From an archaeon (GTDB lineage: Archaea; Nanobdellota; Nanobdellia; Pacearchaeales; GW2011-AR1), in the NCBI GenBank assembly GCA_043815245.1, contig JBDRJD010000028.1:1-60170 (forward strand): a DNA stretch of 60,170 nucleotides, given 5' to 3'. Below are positions 23,905 through 33,177 of this stretch, piece after piece. The translations under genes and the position numbers were made by a program. The notes beneath the pieces were generated by a model. That model saw nothing but the letters and a program-made list of their open reading frames with translations, was not told the origin of the DNA and ran no database searches. The stretch's first letter is position 1, and every line of letters starts with the position of its first letter.

Positions 23905-24035
23905 AGAAGTCCGTGAGTGTTTTTGGACTTCTGGATGCGAGAAAATTCCTTACAAATTGGGAATTTTCTGCACAGAAAATCTCACGATTTTCTTGTGCTC
24001 AGAAAAATCTGCCAATGTAACAGTTTTTCTGACAT
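23905..24035. repeat. Four-hairpin structured element, copy 2 (nrdR 5' region)
   Basis: Stems AGAAGTCC/GGACTTCT, AGAAAATTCC/GGAATTTTCT, GCACAGAAAATC/GATTTTC(T)TGTGC and TCAGAAAAA/TTTTTCTGA. Confidence 0.7.
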
Positions 24036-24036
24036 T

Positions 24037-24558
24037 ATGATGCTATGCCCTTACTGTGGGAAGAAAGAAACAAAAGTTACTGACAAAAGAGATGTTGAGG
24101 GAGTTGTAAGAAGAAGACGTGAATGTTTAAAGTGTAAGAGGAGATTTACAACTTATGAAAGATTTGAACTCAGTAAGTTTTATATTATAAAGAAAGATAA
24201 AAGAAGAGAGACGTATAACCGGGAGAAGTTGTTATCAGGCATGGTTAAGGCTTGTGAAAAAAGGCCTGTAAGCCATGATAAGATTGAGAAGGCTGTTAAT
24301 GAAATTGAAGAAAAGATAAGGAAGAAAAAAGAAGTAAAAAGTGAGATAATAGGTGAAATGGTTATGAATAAGCTAAAGAGGTTGGATAAGGTTGCTTATA
24401 TCCGATTTGCATCAGTTTATAAGGATTTTAAAGATATTGATGACTTTAGAAATGTCGTGAAGGACATTTCTAAGAGCTCTCAAAAATCTAAAGATTTTCG
24501 AAGTTTTGAAAATATGGTAAAAGAGGTCAACCTTTCAAAAAGGTTGCCAAAGAGATAG
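24037..24558 (+). CDS. nrdR: Transcriptional repressor NrdR with C-terminal hairpin-encoded extension
   Basis: CPYC...RRRRECLKC..RFTTYE, ATP cone, LDKVAYIRFASVY. The track's N-terminal extension from 23917 is the repeat element. Confidence 0.93.
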   Translation: MMLCPYCGKKETKVTDKRDVEGVVRRRRECLKCKRRFTTYERFELSKFYIIKKDKRRETYNREKLLSGMVKACEKRPVSHDKIEKAVNEIEEKIRKKKEVKSEIIGEMVMNKLKRLDKVAYIRFASVYKDFKDIDDFRNVVKDISKSSQKSKDFRSFENMVKEVNLSKRLPKR

Positions 24559-24561
24559 AAG

Positions 24562-26907
24562 ATGGTTGAAAGCAGGACAGATAAGGTCATGGAAAAGATT
24601 GAGATTGATGATTTTAGTTTGAAAGATAGAAGCAAGTTGAATTTTTGGCTTTCAATGGTTGAGAAGTACGATTTTGACAAAGTTATTTCTATTTGTTTAA
24701 GGGCTGGAACTACTCCTGAAATTGCAGAGAGAATTGCTAGGGAGATTGATTCTAATTTAGAAGAAGAAGATAAACATGTTGTTCCAATGTCAGAAGTAAG
24801 GCGGTTAATCTTTGCTTTACTATACAAGTATGATTGGGCTGCTGCAAAGAGATTTAGGACAGATGATGTTTTTATTAGAACTAGTTCTGAGAAATTTGAG
24901 GTTTTTGACAGAGCTAAAATCTCTAGAAGCTTGATTAAGGAAACTGAGATTGCTGAAGAGCAGGCAGATGGAATTGCTATGGAAGTTGAGAAGTTTGTAA
25001 AAAACTTGAACCTTACTTATATCTCTTCACCTTTAATAAGGGAGACTGTTAATGTAAAACTACTGGAGTATGGTTTAGAAGATGCTAGGAAAAGGTACAC
25101 GAGAGTAGGTATGCCAATTTATGATGTGGGTGAGATGATTTCTAAAGGGATGGCTACAGATATTAAAAGAGAAAATGCTAATTTACAGCATACTCCAGAG
25201 ACAATTAACTGGATTATATCAGGGGAGACACTAGAACAATATGCGATGATGAAGTTGTTTCCGCAGAACTTAATTGACTCACACCTTTCTGGAGATTATC
25301 ATATCCATATCTTGTCAAATGCAGCTACGCGTCCAAATTGTATTCAACATGTTCCTGCTTTGTTTTTTAAGGATGGATTAAAGGCAGATGGAACTGGAAT
25401 GCACACTTCAATTGCCGGGCCTGCAAAGCATTTATCTGTGGCTATTCAGCATTGTGCTAAGATTCTTTTAGCTTCGCAAACGCAAATGGCGGGGGGGCAG
25501 TCAATTGATTGTTTTAATGTATGGCTTGCTCCTTTTGTAAGGGGGCTAAGTGATGAGGCAGTAAGGCAGGCTGCGCAGGAGTTTATTTATGAGTTAAACC
25601 AGAGTTATGTTGCAAGAGGGGGGCAGGTAGTTTTCAGCAATATTTGTTGGGAGTTTGGAATTCCTGAGTTCTTAAAGAATGTTCCGGCTGTAGGGCCAAA
25701 TGGAAAAATCATGGGGGTTTATGGAGATTATGAAGAAGAAAGTTTGAGGCTGTTAAGAGAGTATACTAAGATGAAGATTAAGGGAGATCATGTGGGAAAG
25801 CAGCATATGTGGCCTAATGATGTTTACAAGATAAGGAAGGAGACTTTTAACAAATATCCTGAAGAAGTAAGATTAGTTCATGAGTTTATGGCTAAGTATG
25901 GAACCCCTTATATTGGGAACGGTATGCCTGAGTGGCAAACTGAGAACTTTAATTACATGGGATGCAGAACTAGACTAGATTCTGCTTATGCAGGGCCGTG
26001 GGGGAGTTTGAGGACAGGAAATGATATTTACATCACTTTGAATCTTCCGAGGCTGGCTTATGAAGCAAAGGGCAATGATACTAAGTTTATGGATCTATTA
26101 GATAGGAGATTAAAGAAGATGGAAGAAATCCTTCTGATAAAGCACAATATTACAGATGATTTGTTGCACAGACAAAACTTGCTAAAGTTTCTAACTCAGA
26201 AATTTGATGGGGAAGAATACTATCAGTTTATGAATACTACTAAATCTTTTGGCTATGCGGGGCTTACAGAGTCAGTTAAATATCATACTGGAAGTCACCT
26301 TCATGAAAGTGAAGATGCTGTGAATTTTGGTGTTAAAGTGATTAAGAGGATGAGAGAGTATGCAAATGACTGCACAAAAGAGCATAAACTAAGATTTTCT
26401 GTAATTGCATCTCCTGCAGAGACTTGTGCTGCGAGACTTGCGAGAATTGATATTGGCAAGTTTGGAAGGTCTGTTATTTTCGCGGGAACTAAAGAAGCGC
26501 CATATTATACAAATAGTCATATGGCCAGGATGGATGCAAATATTCCTTTAGGACATAAGCTGAATATTGAACAAAACTTTCACCCGCTTTCAAATGGAGG
26601 GCATATCACTCATATCTGGCTTGGGGAACAGTCCCCTTCTGTGGACAGTTTAACTGAGATGACTAAAAAAATTTGTAAAAAAGATATTGGGTTTTTTGCT
26701 TATACAAAGGATTATAGTGTCTGCAATGATTGTGCTAGCTTTCAATATGGATTAAAGACCACTTGTAATAATTGTTCTTCAAGTAATTTGAGTAGGTATA
26801 GTAGGATTACAGGATATTACCAGAGAGTGGAAGGGTGGAATGCAAGCAAGAAGCAGGAATTAAAAGATAGATTTAGATATACTTCTGGTAATTGTGCTTG
26901 TGATTAG
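24562..26907 (+). CDS. nrdD: Anaerobic (class III) ribonucleoside-triphosphate reductase
   Basis: ATP cone(s), AGGQS.D.FN, YMGCRT thiyl loop, TLNLPR, YYTNS, CxxC...CxxC, glycyl-radical YSRITGYY. Confidence 0.95.
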   Translation: MVESRTDKVMEKIEIDDFSLKDRSKLNFWLSMVEKYDFDKVISICLRAGTTPEIAERIAREIDSNLEEEDKHVVPMSEVRRLIFALLYKYDWAAAKRFRTDDVFIRTSSEKFEVFDRAKISRSLIKETEIAEEQADGIAMEVEKFVKNLNLTYISSPLIRETVNVKLLEYGLEDARKRYTRVGMPIYDVGEMISKGMATDIKRENANLQHTPETINWIISGETLEQYAMMKLFPQNLIDSHLSGDYHIHILSNAATRPNCIQHVPALFFKDGLKADGTGMHTSIAGPAKHLSVAIQHCAKILLASQTQMAGGQSIDCFNVWLAPFVRGLSDEAVRQAAQEFIYELNQSYVARGGQVVFSNICWEFGIPEFLKNVPAVGPNGKIMGVYGDYEEESLRLLREYTKMKIKGDHVGKQHMWPNDVYKIRKETFNKYPEEVRLVHEFMAKYGTPYIGNGMPEWQTENFNYMGCRTRLDSAYAGPWGSLRTGNDIYITLNLPRLAYEAKGNDTKFMDLLDRRLKKMEEILLIKHNITDDLLHRQNLLKFLTQKFDGEEYYQFMNTTKSFGYAGLTESVKYHTGSHLHESEDAVNFGVKVIKRMREYANDCTKEHKLRFSVIASPAETCAARLARIDIGKFGRSVIFAGTKEAPYYTNSHMARMDANIPLGHKLNIEQNFHPLSNGGHITHIWLGEQSPSVDSLTEMTKKICKKDIGFFAYTKDYSVCNDCASFQYGLKTTCNNCSSSNLSRYSRITGYYQRVEGWNASKKQELKDRFRYTSGNCACD

Positions 26908-27048
26908 TGGGGATAATTTTAAGTATGTAAAAAGATAAATTTTTATTAGAAAGATGGACACCAATATCTTAAGTAATGTTCTTGAAGTATACAAAAAAAG
27001 CAGTTTAAACCTTAATAACCGGAGGAGGTACTATAATCTGATCCAAAC

Positions 27049-27756
27049 ATGGCAGTAAAAGATAATATAAAGGGATTTGTTCCTACGTCGCTAGTTGACT
27101 GGGATGGAAAGGTTTCTGCAGTTATTTTTCTTCCAGGATGTAATTTTAGGTGCAGTTTTTGCAGTAATCCGGATTTAGTTGTAAATACAGATAATATTAA
27201 GACAATTCCCTTTCAGGAAGTTAAAAAAGTTTTAGAAAATAATAATGAATTTATTGATGGGGTGGTAATTACCGGGGGAGAGCCTACAATTTTTTCTGAT
27301 TTTCCAGATTTTTGCCAGAAAATTAAAGAAATGGGGTTTAAAGTGAAGATTGACACAAATGGGACTAATCCCGAGATGTTAAAAGAGTTATTAGATAAAG
27401 AAGTTGTGGATTTTGCTGCAATGGATGTTAAGACTGACTTCGACAAGTATAAAGAAGTTGTAAATGCTGAAGTGGATCTTGAGAAGATAAAAAATTCAAT
27501 AGAATTAATTAAGCAGTTTCCAGAGTATGAATTTAGGATCACTATGTTTCCTAAAATAAGTAAAGAAGATTTAATTAAAGCTGCAGATTATTTAAAAGAA
27601 AAAGGCGCTAAGACTCTGATAATTCAACAGTTTAGAAATGATACTTGCTTGGATAAAGCAGCTGAGGATGTTAAACCTTATTCTGAGGAGCAGTTGAAGG
27701 AAATGAAAGCTGCTGTTGAAACTGGGTTTGAGAAGTGTGTATTGAGAAATGCTTAA
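27049..27756 (+). CDS. nrdG: Class III RNR activating radical SAM enzyme
   Basis: S.VDW.GKV..VIF.PGCNFRCSFC.N, ITGGEP, DTNG, AMDVK. Confidence 0.9.
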   Translation: MAVKDNIKGFVPTSLVDWDGKVSAVIFLPGCNFRCSFCSNPDLVVNTDNIKTIPFQEVKKVLENNNEFIDGVVITGGEPTIFSDFPDFCQKIKEMGFKVKIDTNGTNPEMLKELLDKEVVDFAAMDVKTDFDKYKEVVNAEVDLEKIKNSIELIKQFPEYEFRITMFPKISKEDLIKAADYLKEKGAKTLIIQQFRNDTCLDKAAEDVKPYSEEQLKEMKAAVETGFEKCVLRNA

Positions 27757-27805: not shown

Positions 27806-28903
27806 CTAACATTCAACTAAATTTAAACTAGACTCTCTTTCTAAATAAAGTCTAGCAAGTTTTTCAACTTGAGAAAGATATCTAGGAGAAATATCTTCAA
27901 CTTCTTCAATGGCATAACTGCCTTCTTCAACTCTTGCCCAAACTGGTTTATCAAGCAGTCCGGCAGCTATGTCATGTTCATCCCATGGATGATCTGCAAT
28001 TAGTTCTAATTTTTGCAAAATAGAGTCATAAGGTTCTGTTAAAATGTTTCCAACAAGCTCTCTTTTACTTTCAGAAAACCAGGAGTAAAAAGAAACATCG
28101 CCGTTATTTTCTAGAAATGTATAGGGGTGGTTATGGAAAGGGGGGTCTCTTATTCCTACAAACTGAATTCTAGAATCTTCTTTTTCTAGCATTTTTTCTT
28201 CTGCAAGAAGAAAGTATGCATATAAGCAATCTGAATAACCTTTTTCTGGGTTGCCAGTAGGAGAGATGGCAATTACTTTTTTATATCTTTCAAATAGTTC
28301 TAATTTTTGTTTTTTATTTTTTGCCTTATCAGCTTGTTTTAAAACTCGCATTCTTGCAAGATCATAGTTAAATTCGTAAATTCTCCAGTAATCAAAATCG
28401 GTTTTCTCAAGCTTTTTGAAAAGCTTGGGCATTTCTTTAGAATTTAAGGCAGTGAAAACAGTATGCCAGCCTAGTTGCATTCCATTGTCTTTAATTGCCT
28501 TTGCAAGTTCAGGAAGTTGTTCATAAGTGCTTACAAATTGTCTGCTTCTAAGAGTTTCTTGTATTCCTAGAGTGGTTGAGTCAATTGGAAGTGCAATGTC
28601 GTCTACAAATCTAGCAAGAGTTTCAATTTTTTTGGAAGTTAAAAGAAGTCCGTTAGTGTGATAACTTATTTTGGTTCTGCCTTGGTGAAGAATTTTTAAT
28701 GCAGAATCTAAATCTTTAACTAGAGAAGGATCTCCGCCGCCGATTGTGACTTTTTTTACGCCAGATTCAGCTAGAATCCCGGCCAGTTTTACAAGTTGTT
28801 CTCTGTCTTCTGAAGTCTGCGTGTCAGGCTTAAAGCAATAGATGCAGTTATCATTACAGCGAGAAGTTACAAACCAGTGTATGTGCTGTCCATAGCTTTC
28901 CAT
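27806..28903 (-). CDS. Viperin-like radical SAM protein
   Basis: HWFVTSRCNDNCIYCF, VTIGGGDP, HTNG, ALPIDS, HTV...N, YWRIYEF, YTFLENNG. ATG 28903 is coupled to the dcd stop (TAAAATG). Confidence 0.7.
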   Translation of the reverse strand: MESYGQHIHWFVTSRCNDNCIYCFKPDTQTSEDREQLVKLAGILAESGVKKVTIGGGDPSLVKDLDSALKILHQGRTKISYHTNGLLLTSKKIETLARFVDDIALPIDSTTLGIQETLRSRQFVSTYEQLPELAKAIKDNGMQLGWHTVFTALNSKEMPKLFKKLEKTDFDYWRIYEFNYDLARMRVLKQADKAKNKKQKLELFERYKKVIAISPTGNPEKGYSDCLYAYFLLAEEKMLEKEDSRIQFVGIRDPPFHNHPYTFLENNGDVSFYSWFSESKRELVGNILTEPYDSILQKLELIADHPWDEHDIAAGLLDKPVWARVEEGSYAIEEVEDISPRYLSQVEKLARLYLERESSLNLVEC

Positions 28904-28904
28904 T

Positions 28905-30848
28905 TTAACTAGATGGAGGGGCGAGCCAGGAAATTTGATCAAGGGGAAGAGTTCTCTCAATAGTCCCAGGCATATCTCCAATATCGTGGTATTCGGAAGA
29001 TTTAGTTGCAGCGTAAATTGCATCAAGTTGAGGAATTAAAGTACGAGTCCAGGTTTCAACATTATACTCCGAATCTTTTAAAACTCCCCTTAACTTGTTC
29101 AGAGACATCATTTCCCACCAAGCAATTGAATCTTCTCTTGGAGTAATCTTACCATTAACATGTATTGCATAAATCAGACCAAAGTGCACTCTATCTACGG
29201 GTTGATCTCGTATGAACATTGTTCCGTATAAGTGCGGTCGAGTTACCTGGCCTGAAACTCTAACTTCTTCTTCAAGAACTTCTCTTCTGATATTGTTTAA
29301 GACAAAGTTAGGCTGTTCTGTATCTCTACTTCTGTCTTCAATTCTTATATGCCCCCCAAGAGCTATTGAAAACTTATCAAATAGCCTTTTATCTCCATAT
29401 AGTTTGTAGTCTTTTGCTCTTACATAGGAAAAAACCTTCTTGTCTTGATCAAACATTACTACATATGGGATTACCTGCAGGACGGACTCATCATCTTCAC
29501 AGTCATATCTTGAGTGGAAAAAAGGATTGCCTTCTATTAGTTCCAGAAGTCTTGGAAGAGTTTCTGGGTGCACTGGTTCAAGACCTTCAGGATAAGTTCT
29601 TAAATCATGGAATTTTTTTGCATCTTCAACTAAGACAATTCTGGAGAGGGCGTCTACATTTTTTCCAGCAATATCGAAGTCAAGTCCTTGGAAATATTTT
29701 GCTGTTTTAGGGCCTTTTTGAAATTGATAGTGGGAGCCTACTTCTCCGTAAACTTTGTCTGGAGTGGTAGTCCTAAATAGAACAATGTCACTTATCGCCA
29801 TGCCGTCATCGATTTCTGCATCTTGTGTGGGTATAATCTCAAAAACTAGATCACCTATAAATCCAGGGTCTATAAATCCTGCAAAATGTAATCTTCCCCT
29901 AAGACCTACGTCTGCATGTGCCCTAAGTACTGCGTTTAAGTGAGGGGGGATATTAAGTACTTCTTTAGAAGCAATAAGGTAGTGCTCCCCTTCTTTAAAG
30001 GTTAGCTTTCCCTCTAAATCAGATTTGAGCGGTTCAAAATAATCTTCTGCTCTACGCGCAAACTTTGCACCAAGATCTACTGGTTCAGGATTTTGTCTTG
30101 CTCTTAGTGCGCACACTCCTTTGGTGTATTGCCCTAAAGTGTCAAGATGTAGCTGAACTGCTGATTCCTCGGTGAGTCTTGGTGAGTTAATAGGTAGTGC
30201 TGCCCACCCCATTTCAGGAGTTGCTTCCCAGAGTAATGGAGTTGATTCATTTTCTTTTAAAATTTCTTTGCTTGTTAACATAGAATCAATTCCTTGATAG
30301 AATCTTAGCTGGTTTAATGCGAGTCCTGGACGGATGATATGATTAAATGCAAGAGGTTGAAGTAAAAGCCAGAGTTGCAAGTGTTCTGAGTTAGGGCCTG
30401 GCTCTGAAATCTCGTCATAACAGCCTTGGTAATCTGCAAGTAACCTTGTATCAAGAAAAACTCTTCCTGTAGAGCTTTTGGGAGATGATTTTACTAGCTT
30501 AATTTGAGGGCCTAGTTGTATTCTTTCTTCTAAAGGGGCAAGGTAGGTAAACCCTTTTTTTATTTCATACCCCTCAGAAATATCAACTTGTTCTCTTCTT
30601 TTTTTAGGCAACTCGAGAAGAGATCTCCATACTGTTTTTCCTTTCTCCGGTTTCCAAAGGCCTTCTTCTGGGTCTAGACGGTAAATTGTGTCTCCTATTA
30701 TAGGGTCACAGGAAGCTGGCTGAATACGCGTGTCGGAGATTAGGGAGGGTTTAGTCCTAGTTGCTTCTGAAGATGGAATCTGCAAAACTCCGGATTCAAT
30801 TAGTCCTCTAATTTCTTGATAAGCTAAGCAAGATCCCCTTTCTGTCAT
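28905..30848 (-). CDS. dcd: Long-form (two-domain) dCTP deaminase fused to a COG4112/YmaB-like NUDIX hydrolase
   Basis: IQPAS.D, PKSSTGR, HFAGFIDPGF, GSHYQ.Q; C-terminal R...E.D...LQVIPY, S+ALGGHI, RE..EE, VHFG.IY, ETW. Confidence 0.82.
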   Translation of the reverse strand: MTERGSCLAYQEIRGLIESGVLQIPSSEATRTKPSLISDTRIQPASCDPIIGDTIYRLDPEEGLWKPEKGKTVWRSLLELPKKRREQVDISEGYEIKKGFTYLAPLEERIQLGPQIKLVKSSPKSSTGRVFLDTRLLADYQGCYDEISEPGPNSEHLQLWLLLQPLAFNHIIRPGLALNQLRFYQGIDSMLTSKEILKENESTPLLWEATPEMGWAALPINSPRLTEESAVQLHLDTLGQYTKGVCALRARQNPEPVDLGAKFARRAEDYFEPLKSDLEGKLTFKEGEHYLIASKEVLNIPPHLNAVLRAHADVGLRGRLHFAGFIDPGFIGDLVFEIIPTQDAEIDDGMAISDIVLFRTTTPDKVYGEVGSHYQFQKGPKTAKYFQGLDFDIAGKNVDALSRIVLVEDAKKFHDLRTYPEGLEPVHPETLPRLLELIEGNPFFHSRYDCEDDESVLQVIPYVVMFDQDKKVFSYVRAKDYKLYGDKRLFDKFSIALGGHIRIEDRSRDTEQPNFVLNNIRREVLEEEVRVSGQVTRPHLYGTMFIRDQPVDRVHFGLIYAIHVNGKITPREDSIAWWEMMSLNKLRGVLKDSEYNVETWTRTLIPQLDAIYAATKSSEYHDIGDMPGTIERTLPLDQISWLAPPSS

Positions 30849-30901: not shown

Positions 30902-31522
30902 TTACAAGGATAGTCTTTGCTTTGCTTCGTATCTTATTCTATCCTGCATTCCATCAATATCTCCGTGGGCATAAGGAAGGACAAAAAAAATATCTGAGTT
31001 TAATTCTGCAATTTCTCTGTATCCTTTACAAACTCTCTGATGAAATTCAATTGCTTCGCTTTCAAATCTGTCTGCACCTGCGTTTTTTAATCCAACTTCA
31101 GGATCAAGGTCTATAAGAATTGCTAAATCAGGGCGCATTCCAAAAGTTACTTTTTCATTTAGGGTGCGGATATAATTTAGATCCATGCCCCTTCCATAAC
31201 CTTGATAAGCTTCAGAAGCGTATCTTCCTCTATCTTGGAGGATAATTCTTCCAGCGTTTCGAGCCGGTATAATGAGGCCTGCATAAATGTCTGCTCTTGC
31301 AGCTTCAAACAAGAGTAATTCTGCTAGGGGATCATGGAGTTCTGTTTCAGGAGATAATAGTATTCGTCTTATTGCTTCTCCAGCAGATGTTGCTCCGGGT
31401 TCTCTTGCTGTAAGGGGATTATAACCTTTCTCTCTTAACCATTCTTCAAATAAACTAATCTGAGTAGTTTTGCCGCAGCCCTCGCCGCCTTCAAACATAA
31501 TTAGCTTGCCTTTTTCTGACAT
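30902..31522 (-). CDS. tmk: Thymidylate (dTMP) kinase
   Basis: FEGGEGCGKTTQ, REPG, LLFEAAR, DR...S..AYQGYGRG, PDL. Confidence 0.92.
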   Translation of the reverse strand: MSEKGKLIMFEGGEGCGKTTQISLFEEWLREKGYNPLTAREPGATSAGEAIRRILLSPETELHDPLAELLLFEAARADIYAGLIIPARNAGRIILQDRGRYASEAYQGYGRGMDLNYIRTLNEKVTFGMRPDLAILIDLDPEVGLKNAGADRFESEAIEFHQRVCKGYREIAELNSDIFFVLPYAHGDIDGMQDRIRYEAKQRLSL

Positions 31523-31531
31523 TTTAGAAAA

Positions 31532-32704
31532 TTAAACTACTCTTGTTAGACCATTTGCTGGCCCCCAAACACAAGGAGAATCACAGCCTGTAGATTCAAT
31601 CTTGCACCTTGAAGTTGCGTTTGCAGCAATTTCTGGGCGAACTGATCCATACATTTCAGCAACAGCTTGGGTATTTTTCATTATTTCGTATTGAGCATGC
31701 CCGCAAAGGCGTTGGCGCATTTTTGAAATGTAATGCCTTGGAGTTCCGGTTTCATTTACTTTTAAAAACTGAGCTTGGGGAAAATCAGAGGTTGCAACTT
31801 CTTCTAAGTCTCCAGTCCACTCTCGAACTAGAGATCTATCCGGAAGTATAATTCCTGGAATAAAGAAACCAAGAGGAGCTCCTGGCTGATGTCCTCCAGA
31901 GATATGATAATCAATAGTTCTATGACGGTGAGCTTGTGCAAGTCCTGCAAAGCTCATTAGGTAATTAATTGCATAGGTATCTGCAAAATGCGGTGCAACT
32001 GTATGGGGTTGAAATAAACTGAGATGATGCTCTATTTTACTTGTTAAGTCAGCTTCTCTAAATTTTGCAATATCCTCTTGAGCAATAAATGCCTCAAAAC
32101 AATCTGCAAGCCTTGAAAACATTGGATTTCCGGACTGCCTATATTCTGGAATTAGAGCTTCCATTTCGTGAGCGATAAAATTAAGTTGTCTTAAGCTGAG
32201 AGTGTGAGTCATTTTTGTTGGAGTGAAAACAGAAGTCATGTAACGCGCGTTTTCTTGAACTAACTTTTTAATTGCAACTTGTCTATCTTCTGAATTACCC
32301 ATTGCAGGATAGACTGCACCAATTAAAGGAGTTAGCCGGTCCATCCACTTGTCATAAAGTGCATTTTGAACTGGCTCAATATCCTCCATTCTAGTATACC
32401 TAGCTGATTTTTCTGAAGTAGCCATGTCTTGCTCGTTATTAAGGACCATTGCCATAATCTTTGGGAGGCCTTGCATGTAAAAGCTAAGAGTTGTGTGTTC
32501 AAACGGGCTATGATGCCCAGATGTAAGTAAGCGGTCCATTAGAGCTGCTTTATCTTGCTCATTTTGCACGACTACAAAGTCTTTATCAGTATAACAGACT
32601 CTTGCATTATCTCTTCCAAATTTCAACATTGGTTCAAGATTTCTCCAGCCTTCTGTTGCCCCTATTAACTCAATTCTCATGGCTGCACCATCTTTTTCTG
32701 CCAT
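31532..32704 (-). CDS. thyX: Flavin-dependent thymidylate synthase, tandem ThyX domains
   Basis: GHHSPFEH, SEKSARY, Q.NARY..., second-domain AQAHRHR. ATG 32704 lies 23 nt below the TATA at 32728-33. Confidence 0.8.
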   Translation of the reverse strand: MAEKDGAAMRIELIGATEGWRNLEPMLKFGRDNARVCYTDKDFVVVQNEQDKAALMDRLLTSGHHSPFEHTTLSFYMQGLPKIMAMVLNNEQDMATSEKSARYTRMEDIEPVQNALYDKWMDRLTPLIGAVYPAMGNSEDRQVAIKKLVQENARYMTSVFTPTKMTHTLSLRQLNFIAHEMEALIPEYRQSGNPMFSRLADCFEAFIAQEDIAKFREADLTSKIEHHLSLFQPHTVAPHFADTYAINYLMSFAGLAQAHRHRTIDYHISGGHQPGAPLGFFIPGIILPDRSLVREWTGDLEEVATSDFPQAQFLKVNETGTPRHYISKMRQRLCGHAQYEIMKNTQAVAEMYGSVRPEIAANATSRCKIESTGCDSPCVWGPANGLTRVV

Positions 32705-32844
32705 ACTCAAATCCAGGATCAGAACTTTATAAAGAAGGTTGCAACAGAAAGTATATTTTGAAAAATACTATTGAGAAATAGTTAAGTTTAAATAAGACTT
32801 CAGGATAGTTTTGATATGCAAGAATTGAAGAGGTGTGAAGGAAA

Positions 32845-33177
32845 ATGGCAGAGGCAAAGAACGGAGTTGAAGAAATCACTGGGAATAATATTGAAGAGAA
32901 GTTGGGAAAACCTCTCGTAGTTCTAGATTTTTTTGCTGAGTGGTGTATGCCTTGTCTTATGATGGCTCCTGTTGTTGAAGAGCTACATGATAAGCTAAAG
33001 GGGAAGGTAACTTTTTTTAAGGTGAATATTGATGATCATCAGGACCTTGCTAGAAAGTTCAAAGTTGCTTCTATTCCTACATTAATAATTTTTAGTAAGG
33101 GTGTGGAAAAAGAGAGGATTGTAGGCAGTATACCTGCTGATGCAATTGAAGATAAAATTACGAGTTTTTTAAGCTAA
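32845..33177 (+). CDS. trxA: Thioredoxin (WCMPC variant)
   Basis: DFFAEWCMPC, VNID, SIPTL; GAGGTG SD. Confidence 0.88.
   Translation: MAEAKNGVEEITGNNIEEKLGKPLVVLDFFAEWCMPCLMMAPVVEELHDKLKGKVTFFKVNIDDHQDLARKFKVASIPTLIIFSKGVEKERIVGSIPADAIEDKITSFLS

Follow-up and report, generated by a model that had tools for sequence, protein, structure and literature searches.

How prokaryotes that lack dut supply themselves with dUMP and keep dUTP out of their DNA is an open question; among the genomes surveyed, dut was missing in 14 of 15 from Thermotogae and in 6 of 7 from Planctomycetes (PMC5122711). A gene from an archaeon of the Pacearchaeales (GW2011-AR1 lineage) raises it in a particular form, namely whether a Nudix domain attached to a dCTP deaminase could carry out the dUTPase step. 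The gene, here called P0001, lies on contig JBDRJD010000028.1 (C28 in our numbering) of assembly GCA_043815245.1, which amounts to 0.92 Mb and is 85.7% complete. The whole contig, 60,170 nucleotides long, was analyzed and is referred to as the window. An earlier note, made from the sequence alone, had read P0001 as a long-form dCTP deaminase (Dcd) continuing in frame into a YmaB/COG4112-like Nudix domain, and had proposed that this domain supplies the dUTP pyrophosphatase step that feeds the thymidylate synthase ThyX.

A long-form dCTP deaminase and a Nudix domain on one chain

The first part of that reading was borne out, as the Pfam lobes and the match to the Thermotoga maritima protein TM1382 agree with it. 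P0001 carries a long-form Dcd and a Nudix-fold domain of the YmaB/TM1382 (COG4112) family on one chain. The gene is a single uninterrupted open reading frame, from an ATG at 30848 to a TAA at 28907-28905, and its parts are as follows.

28905..30848, minus strand: fusion gene P0001, 647 amino acids (aa), long-form dCTP deaminase plus YmaB/TM1382-type Nudix domain (open reading frame and translation, Pfam, NCBIfam, homologues, AlphaFold2 model)
30291..30755, minus strand: Dcd N-lobe, residues 32-186, carrying the Ser/Arg half-site PKSSTGR (PF06559, 2e-22; aligned to 2r9q; invariant columns)
29691..30167, minus strand: Dcd C-lobe, residues 228-386, carrying the Asp/Glu half-site AGFIDPGF...E337 (PF22569 and PF22769; aligned to 2qxx)
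29004..29666, minus strand: YmaB/TM1382-type Nudix-fold domain, residues 395-615 (phmmer to 3e57, 4.5e-13; Foldseek top match 3e57)
29265..29357, minus strand: variant Nudix box G498-G499-H500-x4-D505...R522-E523-V-L-E-E527-E528 (invariant residues in 31 domains)
28908..29003, minus strand: private C-terminal tail, residues 616-647, disordered, of low model confidence and not present in homologues (alignment; predicted local distance difference test score, pLDDT, below 50 for residues 632-647)

All motifs quoted earlier are present in the 647-residue translation: PKSSTGR (residues 123-129), AGFIDPGF (323-330) and LQVIPY (457-462), followed in the C-terminal part by LGGHI (497-501), RREVLEEE (521-528) and VHFG (554-557). 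The full-length AlphaFold2 model has a pLDDT of 85.8 and a predicted TM-score (pTM) of 0.79. That the two parts are joined in frame cannot be put down to misassembly, because more than 120 clusters at 90% identity, from independent assemblies, cover about 95% of P0001 with 42-50% identity in a word-indexed search. Nearly all of these fused clusters are 585-630 aa long; their sources are metagenome genomes of the Woese-, Pace- and Nanoarchaeota type, and within the phylum at least 10 GTDB families include genomes with a fused gene. In NCBI they are named only "dCTP deaminase", and for some of them JGI gives "dCTP deaminase / predicted NUDIX family phosphoesterase".

Both tandem lobes of the Dcd part pass the Pfam gathering scores, which assigns it to the long form (DCD_N, residues 32-186, 2e-22, 80.2 bits against a cut-off of 21.4; DCD_C and DCD, residues 228-386, 4e-19 and 2e-25, with 69.3 bits for DCD_C against 22). 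The NCBIfam equivalog for long Dcd, NF005734, matches residues 9-387 with 152.2 bits, under its 283-bit cut-off, and judging from these scores the Dcd of P0001 is a divergent archaeal branch of long-form Dcd with an extra domain. Its closest solved relative is the two-lobed long Dcd 2r9q (2.4e-26), with which residues 1-390 align throughout, and its C-lobe is homologous to the M. tuberculosis Dcd:Dut 2qxx (3e-9). In an alignment of 34 homologues S125, R129, D327 and E337 are invariant and align with the motifs of 2r9q and 2qxx; G128, A323, G324 and F325 are invariant as well. The N-lobe retains KSS..R, and the corresponding Ser/Arg motif of the C-lobe has decayed to AHADVGLRGR. Because the Ser/Arg motif is kept in the N-lobe and the Asp/Glu motif in the C-lobe, one composite Dcd site is expected per chain. 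A search of the genome with P0001 returned P0001 alone, so that this is the only Dcd of the genome.

Identity of the Nudix domain

The C-terminal 261 residues had no Pfam match even at E<=10, PF00293 included, and three relatives (P0230, P0265 and P0242) reach Pfam NUDIX with 24-31 bits against a cut-off of 21.1. Residues 48-201 of the domain matched PDB entry 3e57 by phmmer (4.5e-13), which is T. maritima TM1382, annotated as "putative Nudix hydrolase". The AlphaFold model of the C-terminal part (pLDDT 87.5, pTM 0.85) has the alpha/beta/alpha Nudix fold. Its top Foldseek match was again 3e57 (E 6e-15, TM-score 0.86 by target), with ordinary Nudix proteins next; the search gave 183 PDB matches at E<=0.001, and the matches listed are Nudix-clan proteins, isopentenyl diphosphate (IPP) isomerases among them. 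The domain resembles TM1382 in sequence and in fold, N-terminal extension included, and belongs by this to the YmaB/TM1382 family. YmaB and TM1382 are, we assume, placed in one COG (COG4112).

In P0001 the Nudix box is G499-x5-D505-x16-R522-E523-V-L-E-E527-E528. Compared with the canonical GX5EX7REUXEEXGU it keeps the REUxEE core, has Asp for the first Glu and a long spacer, and lacks the trailing Gly; a six-residue insert in the box loop, RSRDTE, is found in P0001 only among the 34 aligned homologues. In that alignment G498, G499, H500, D505, R522, E523 and E528 are invariant, and at least 90% of the sequences have E527. When fused and stand-alone domains are taken together (31 sequences), the box has the form G-x5-D-x(9-16)-R-E-U-x-E-E, with G499, H500, D505, R522, E523, E527 and E528 invariant; the invariance of every acidic residue argues for an active hydrolase.

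A word-indexed search with the C-terminal domain returned only 8 close proteins, mostly fused or fragmentary, and an exhaustive profile search was used instead. A profile built from 12 such Nudix domains found 4879 clusters at 50% identity (E<=1e-10), mostly stand-alone proteins of about 200-220 aa, with some 60 fused representatives. Two clusters, P0008 and P0015, add a nucleoside diphosphate kinase (NDK) domain at the C-terminus, giving a Dcd-YmaB-NDK protein of 765 aa. Elsewhere a zinc-dependent dCMP/cytidine-type deaminase is fused to a YmaB-type domain (P0195, 385 aa), and P0278 (600 aa) combines deaminase, P-loop kinase and YmaB-type domain. To judge by their domain assignments, cytosine-nucleotide deaminases of two unrelated kinds are joined to the same Nudix domain. 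In a tree of Nudix domains the fused ones fall in two clades; we do not claim two independent fusion events, since an approximately unbiased (AU) test was compatible with a single origin (p = 0.15).

Other architectures were seen in passing. P0125, P0126, P0128 and P0129 (341-413 aa) consist of a DCD_C lobe and a YmaB-type domain only, and may be truncated calls or a real architecture; for one of them the contig is 23.9 kb long, and one of the clusters contains 10 members. Also alignable over the Nudix part are 376-aa DCD proteins of candidate-phylum bacteria, which form an Atlas cluster. As a lead only, Atlas clusters with the fold of the Nudix domain are commonest in Planctomycetota and occur also in phages.

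A proposed route from dCTP to dUMP

We propose that the N-terminal 390 residues, which have the dUTPase fold, would use the composite Dcd site to deaminate dCTP to dUTP, and that the C-terminal 220 residues, acting as a YmaB/TM1382 Nudix pyrophosphohydrolase, would split this dUTP into dUMP and pyrophosphate (PPi). The dUMP would feed the ThyX-like enzyme and Tmk encoded in the same operon, and free dUTP would be kept low. If ThyX, Tmk and NDK are taken as given, every step from dCTP to dTTP has an assigned enzyme except the hydrolysis of dUTP. We give this sequence of two reactions about an even chance. The analysis shows how the protein is built and how widely this build is conserved, that its catalytic residues are kept, in what gene context it lies and how it is distributed among genomes; both activities, the substrate of the Nudix site and any channelling between the two sites are deduced.

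dUTPase in this genome and across the phylum

The operon was said to hold no separate dUTPase, which is true of the operon and of the whole window. The genome is another matter. The earlier note suggested checking whether it lacks dut, and a genome-wide search found a PF00692 match on contig C6 (C6:9086-9469) and none to the fusion gene itself. The only PF00692 gene of the genome encodes a trimeric-type Dut of 162 aa (C6:9044-9532, L001:1459-1947). Its motif II reads DRAG where relatives have DRSG or PRSS, a change of Ser to Ala, and its motif V is degenerate (RYDRGFLSTG vs RG..GFGS.G in relatives). Work on Ser72 of the E. coli enzyme is said to show that the motif II serine matters for Dut catalysis. 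From these motifs, and as a lead only, the local Dut may be a weak enzyme.

For the phyletic pattern, 401 genomes of the phylum were sampled with the Nudix-domain profile. The domain was found in 54 of them, fused in 15, stand-alone in 38 and as a weak match in one. Any PF00692 match was present in 24 of 53 carriers (45%) and in 280 of 348 non-carriers (80%), a contrast that is overstated because related genomes are not independent. Strong matches (E<=1e-20) gave 10/53 for carriers and, by hand count, about 195/348 for non-carriers, and Dut was less frequent in carriers in eight of the nine families in which carriers and non-carriers both occur. Among the genomes counted are five unpublished ones (carriers G243 and G333; others G244, G322 and G360), the omission of which shifts the figures by at most 1-2 genomes. 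A dUTPase always accompanying the fusion had been named as a result that would refute the proposal. In the sample, Dut accompanies the fusion in four of the 15 genomes (G000, G067, G399 and G162) and is absent from the other 11; the weak PF00692 hit of G266 is a short Dcd-like open reading frame.

Genomes with a stand-alone long Dcd offer a comparison. A strong Dut occurs in 24 of 51 of them, with dut of G334 being the gene immediately upstream of dcd; 15 genomes have a stand-alone long Dcd and neither Dut nor YmaB. Outside the phylum the Dut contrast rests on lists for control genomes and on published data (PMC5122711). In the control set the organism from which TM1382 comes, T. maritima, shows ThyX and MazG and no PF00692 match.

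The operon and its neighborhood

On the minus strand the operon runs from a ThyX-like gene through tmk and the fusion to a viperin-like radical SAM gene. The genes around the fusion are these.

31532..32710, minus strand: divergent ThyX-like gene P0004, 392 aa, first in the operon (PF02511, 71.7 bits; NCBIfam thyX, 56.8 bits against a cut-off of 87.9)
30902..31522, minus strand: dTMP kinase gene tmk, directly upstream of the fusion (TIGR00041, 134 bits against a cut-off of 83)
27806..28903, minus strand: viperin-like radical SAM gene (Radical_SAM; NF038283 below cut-off; PADLOC pVip, 5e-23)
32845..33177, plus strand: thioredoxin gene, divergent from the operon (PF00085, 4.5e-26)
23917..27756, plus strand: nrdR, class III ribonucleotide reductase gene nrdD and activase gene nrdG, convergent on the operon (Zn_ribbon_NrdR and ATP-cone; NRDD, 1e-144; Radical_SAM)

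P0004, the ThyX of the earlier note, lies in the operon and is the only PF02511 match in the genome; no ThyA was found there, and P0004 is the sole thymidylate-synthase candidate. It is, however, very divergent. Its NCBIfam score is below cut-off, NNE stands at the expected place of the RHR motif, with an HRHR displaced into an insert of about 190 aa, and T. maritima ThyX gives a weak, split match in which only residues ~40-108 and ~303-355 align. In most relatives, unlike P0004, a single open reading frame encodes a tandem duplication of ThyX that is 540-600 aa long.

At the other end of the operon the junction reads TAA-A-ATG, so that a single base separates the stop of the fusion from the start codon of the radical SAM gene, and from this spacing the two genes may be translationally coupled. 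No radical SAM homologue lies beside the fusion at 13 other fusion loci. A conserved operon of fusion, radical SAM gene and ThyX was considered and rejected, since that gene is missing from those 13 loci and thyX or tmk is adjacent in some only. No NrdR box was seen by eye upstream of the operon, in 32711-32844.

Gene order around the fusion varies between genomes, and the same functions come back. In G339 nrdJ, trx, the fusion, tmk and thyX stand together. In G213 the fusion is directly followed by a tandem-duplicated thyX, with tmk nearby, and in G159 a tmk-like gene follows the fusion, which has a kinase-deaminase gene as its other neighbor. In G033 and G210 nrdR (and nrdJ) is divergent from the fusion. 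G337 carries a second, stand-alone YmaB-type copy beside thyX and tmk, and G055 a stand-alone YmaB-type gene beside thyX. Stand-alone YmaB-type genes also occur in nrdR-nrdJ-ymaB(-trx) operons (G106, G076 and G086), and thioredoxin recurs as a neighbor of YmaB-type genes in three other genomes (L004, L017 and L023).

Two side observations belong to this survey. G106, of the same family as the window genome, has a compact operon (L017:3624-8316) of nrdR, a class II ribonucleotide reductase with a TSCPD domain, a ymaB-type Nudix gene and thioredoxin, which parallels nrdI-nrdE-nrdF-ymaB of Bacillus. Proteins of about 350 aa in which a P-loop kinase at the N-terminus is joined to a zinc deaminase at the C-terminus stand among the housekeeping deoxynucleoside triphosphate (dNTP) genes of DPANN genomes, for example in G159 (L011:4768-5811, minus strand), divergent from the fusion, and in G086 (C21:3027-3386), downstream of nrdJ in a ymaB-nrdR-nrdJ operon; their architecture is that of anti-phage dCTP deaminases.

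Weighing the alternatives

That the Nudix domain supplies the dUTPase step is the best-supported hypothesis, given its invariant glutamates, its linkage to tmk, thyX, ribonucleotide reductase and NDK, and the lower frequency of Dut among carriers; on the other side stand the presence of a Dut in the genome and a substrate that is deduced. Besides the relatedness of the sampled genomes, already mentioned, several findings count against this hypothesis. Because a Dut is encoded, the Nudix domain is not needed here to close the pathway. P0004 is very divergent, and the Nudix enzymes that act on pyrimidine dNTPs (MutT2, Orf135 and NudI) are structurally no closer to the domain than other Nudix proteins. 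No published biochemistry was found in the literature for the fused family or for any long-form Dcd. Of the 15 fusion genomes 10 encode small MazG-type proteins, and only 5 have neither Dut nor MazG; some relatives of MazG hydrolyse dUTP. Of the genomes with a stand-alone long Dcd and neither Dut nor YmaB, eleven also lack MazG (G152, G216, G049, G112, G253, G026, G115, G014, G032, G154 and G278); these eleven are at least 92% complete, and long Dcd may therefore need no partner: the partnerless enzymes may be bifunctional and yield dUMP themselves, or another unrecognised dUTPase may be present. Finally, PF00383 genes of the dCMP-deaminase type were found in 18 of 29 Dut-less carriers, many of them kinase-deaminases of about 350 aa with a P-loop, and for the stand-alone members a role in converting dCTP to dCMP is as plausible as one in converting dUTP to dUMP.

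Much of this would also fit a broad (pyrimidine) dNTP pyrophosphohydrolase that rebalances the pools made by ribonucleotide reductase, for example by taking dCTP to dCMP, or dTTP and dATP to their monophosphates; dUMP would then come from the genome's own Dut or from a bifunctional long Dcd. The local Dut and the eleven partnerless genomes agree with such a role, as do the dCMP-deaminase-type genes, one of which belongs to the ymaB-nrdR-nrdJ operon of G086 while another adjoins the fusion of G159. Stand-alone members stand in nrdR-nrdJ operons and not with dcd, a YmaB-type gene adjoins dut in G068 and G224, and the only activity reported for the family is an unspecific "dNTP pyrophosphohydrolase" (PMC5960316). 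Yet dCTP hydrolysis beside a dCTP deaminase would waste the substrate of the deaminase, and five Dut-less fusion genomes (G033, G080, G213, G337 and G339) show no PF00383 deaminase to use the dCMP. Nor is a negative association with Dut expected of a general housekeeping role, and the repeated fusions to cytosine-nucleotide deaminases point to the C-to-U branch. We regard this explanation, with its other source of dUMP, as the main rival of the proposed route and as less likely than it.

Two further explanations are less likely still. The Nudix domain could be a non-hydrolytic sensor of nucleotides such as dTTP or dATP, serving as allosteric regulator of the fused deaminase. Dcd enzymes are feedback-inhibited by dTTP, which speaks for the idea, and the non-canonical box, with Asp for the first Glu, a longer loop and no PF00293 match to P0001, points the same way. 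Non-enzymatic members exist in the Nudix clan (PMC5389931). Nevertheless the metal-binding glutamates of RE.xEE are invariant in the 31 domains, which is unexpected for a pure binding module, thousands of stand-alone clusters have no deaminase to regulate, and dNTP hydrolysis has been reported for YmaB (PMC5960316); a sensor is thus quite improbable. The other explanation would make the operon an antiviral module, in which the deaminase-Nudix protein removes dCTP on infection and the radical SAM enzyme makes a chain-terminating nucleotide. In its favor are the probable translational coupling of the radical SAM gene to the fusion, the PADLOC pVip match of that gene and the match of the deaminase-kinase-YmaB fusion P0278 to the PADLOC dCTP-deaminase defence model (1.7e-49). 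P0001 itself, however, matches 0 PADLOC families, the model for anti-phage dCTP deaminases of the AvcD type included, and its radical SAM neighbor is not shared by the 13 other loci. The fusion is single-copy and widely conserved among housekeeping tmk, thyX, nrd and trx genes, and it carries the only Dcd of its genome. An antiviral role seems very unlikely.

Significance

The conversion of dCTP to dUTP and on to dUMP by the two parts of P0001 would, if true, name a family that has a crystal structure, a conserved place in ribonucleotide reductase operons and thousands of clusters, and would close a gap in the reconstruction of nucleotide metabolism in DPANN archaea. Nothing was found on long Dcd, COG4112 or the fusion in the literature beyond three reports (PMC5960316, PMC5389931 and PMC5122711); in one of them 3E57 is entered with undetermined function (PMC5389931). 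The fusion to Dcd gives a specific hypothesis, that dUTP is the substrate of the YmaB/TM1382 family. Should this hypothesis fail, the fusion would still place the family within pyrimidine deoxynucleotide metabolism. A more far-reaching and more tentative idea, which we hold to be possible rather than probable, is that YmaB/TM1382 proteins form a third class of dUTPase beside the trimeric enzymes and the dimeric all-alpha ones, responsible for dUMP supply and uracil-free DNA in prokaryotes without dut. It would extend to many DPANN archaea, Thermotogae and Planctomycetes, with the recurrent fusions to dCTP deaminases as the clue to the substrate. What the present analysis contributes is the atypical Dut of this genome and a quantified, family-stratified Dut contrast, together with the counter-examples, namely the partnerless long Dcd and the co-occurring dCMP-type deaminases.

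Comparison with known systems

The trimeric dUTPase (Dut, PF00692) catalyses the reaction proposed for the Nudix domain and has an unrelated fold. E. coli NudI and Orf135/NudG and mycobacterial MutT2, which release the monophosphate from dUTP, dTTP or dCTP, have a Nudix fold as well and are second-tier structural matches; they have only 11-16% identity to the domain and are without the N-terminal extension found in TM1382. Closer are B. subtilis YmaB, encoded last in nrdI-nrdE-nrdF-ymaB, and TM1382 (3e57). The variant Nudix box of P0001 is that of TM1382, and the link to ribonucleotide reductase is common, whereas YmaB and TM1382 are stand-alone proteins of about 200 aa and the domain described here is fused to Dcd. 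For YmaB, whose gene belongs to the B. subtilis nrd operon, preliminary dNTP pyrophosphohydrolase activity has been described, and a role in converting dATP to dAMP has been speculated (PMC5960316).

With long-form Dcd (Pfam DCD_N plus DCD_C, NF005734, and PDB 2r9q of Agrobacterium) P0001 has in common both lobes and the Ser/Arg and Asp/Glu motifs split between them; it differs in about 260 additional C-terminal residues, which form the Nudix domain, and in a score below the equivalog cut-off. The bifunctional DCD-DUT enzymes of Methanocaldococcus jannaschii and M. tuberculosis (PDB 2qxx) have a homologous C-lobe, and the net reaction proposed for P0001, dCTP to dUMP, is theirs. They are, however, single-lobe homotrimers that perform both steps in one active site, whereas P0001 has two lobes and a Nudix domain, and its second step would fall to an unrelated fold on the same chain. 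From its domain composition P0001 is not a member of the DCD-DUT family and may work like one: two unrelated folds would do jointly what DCD-DUT does in one site, a natural two-fold analogue of the bifunctional enzyme.

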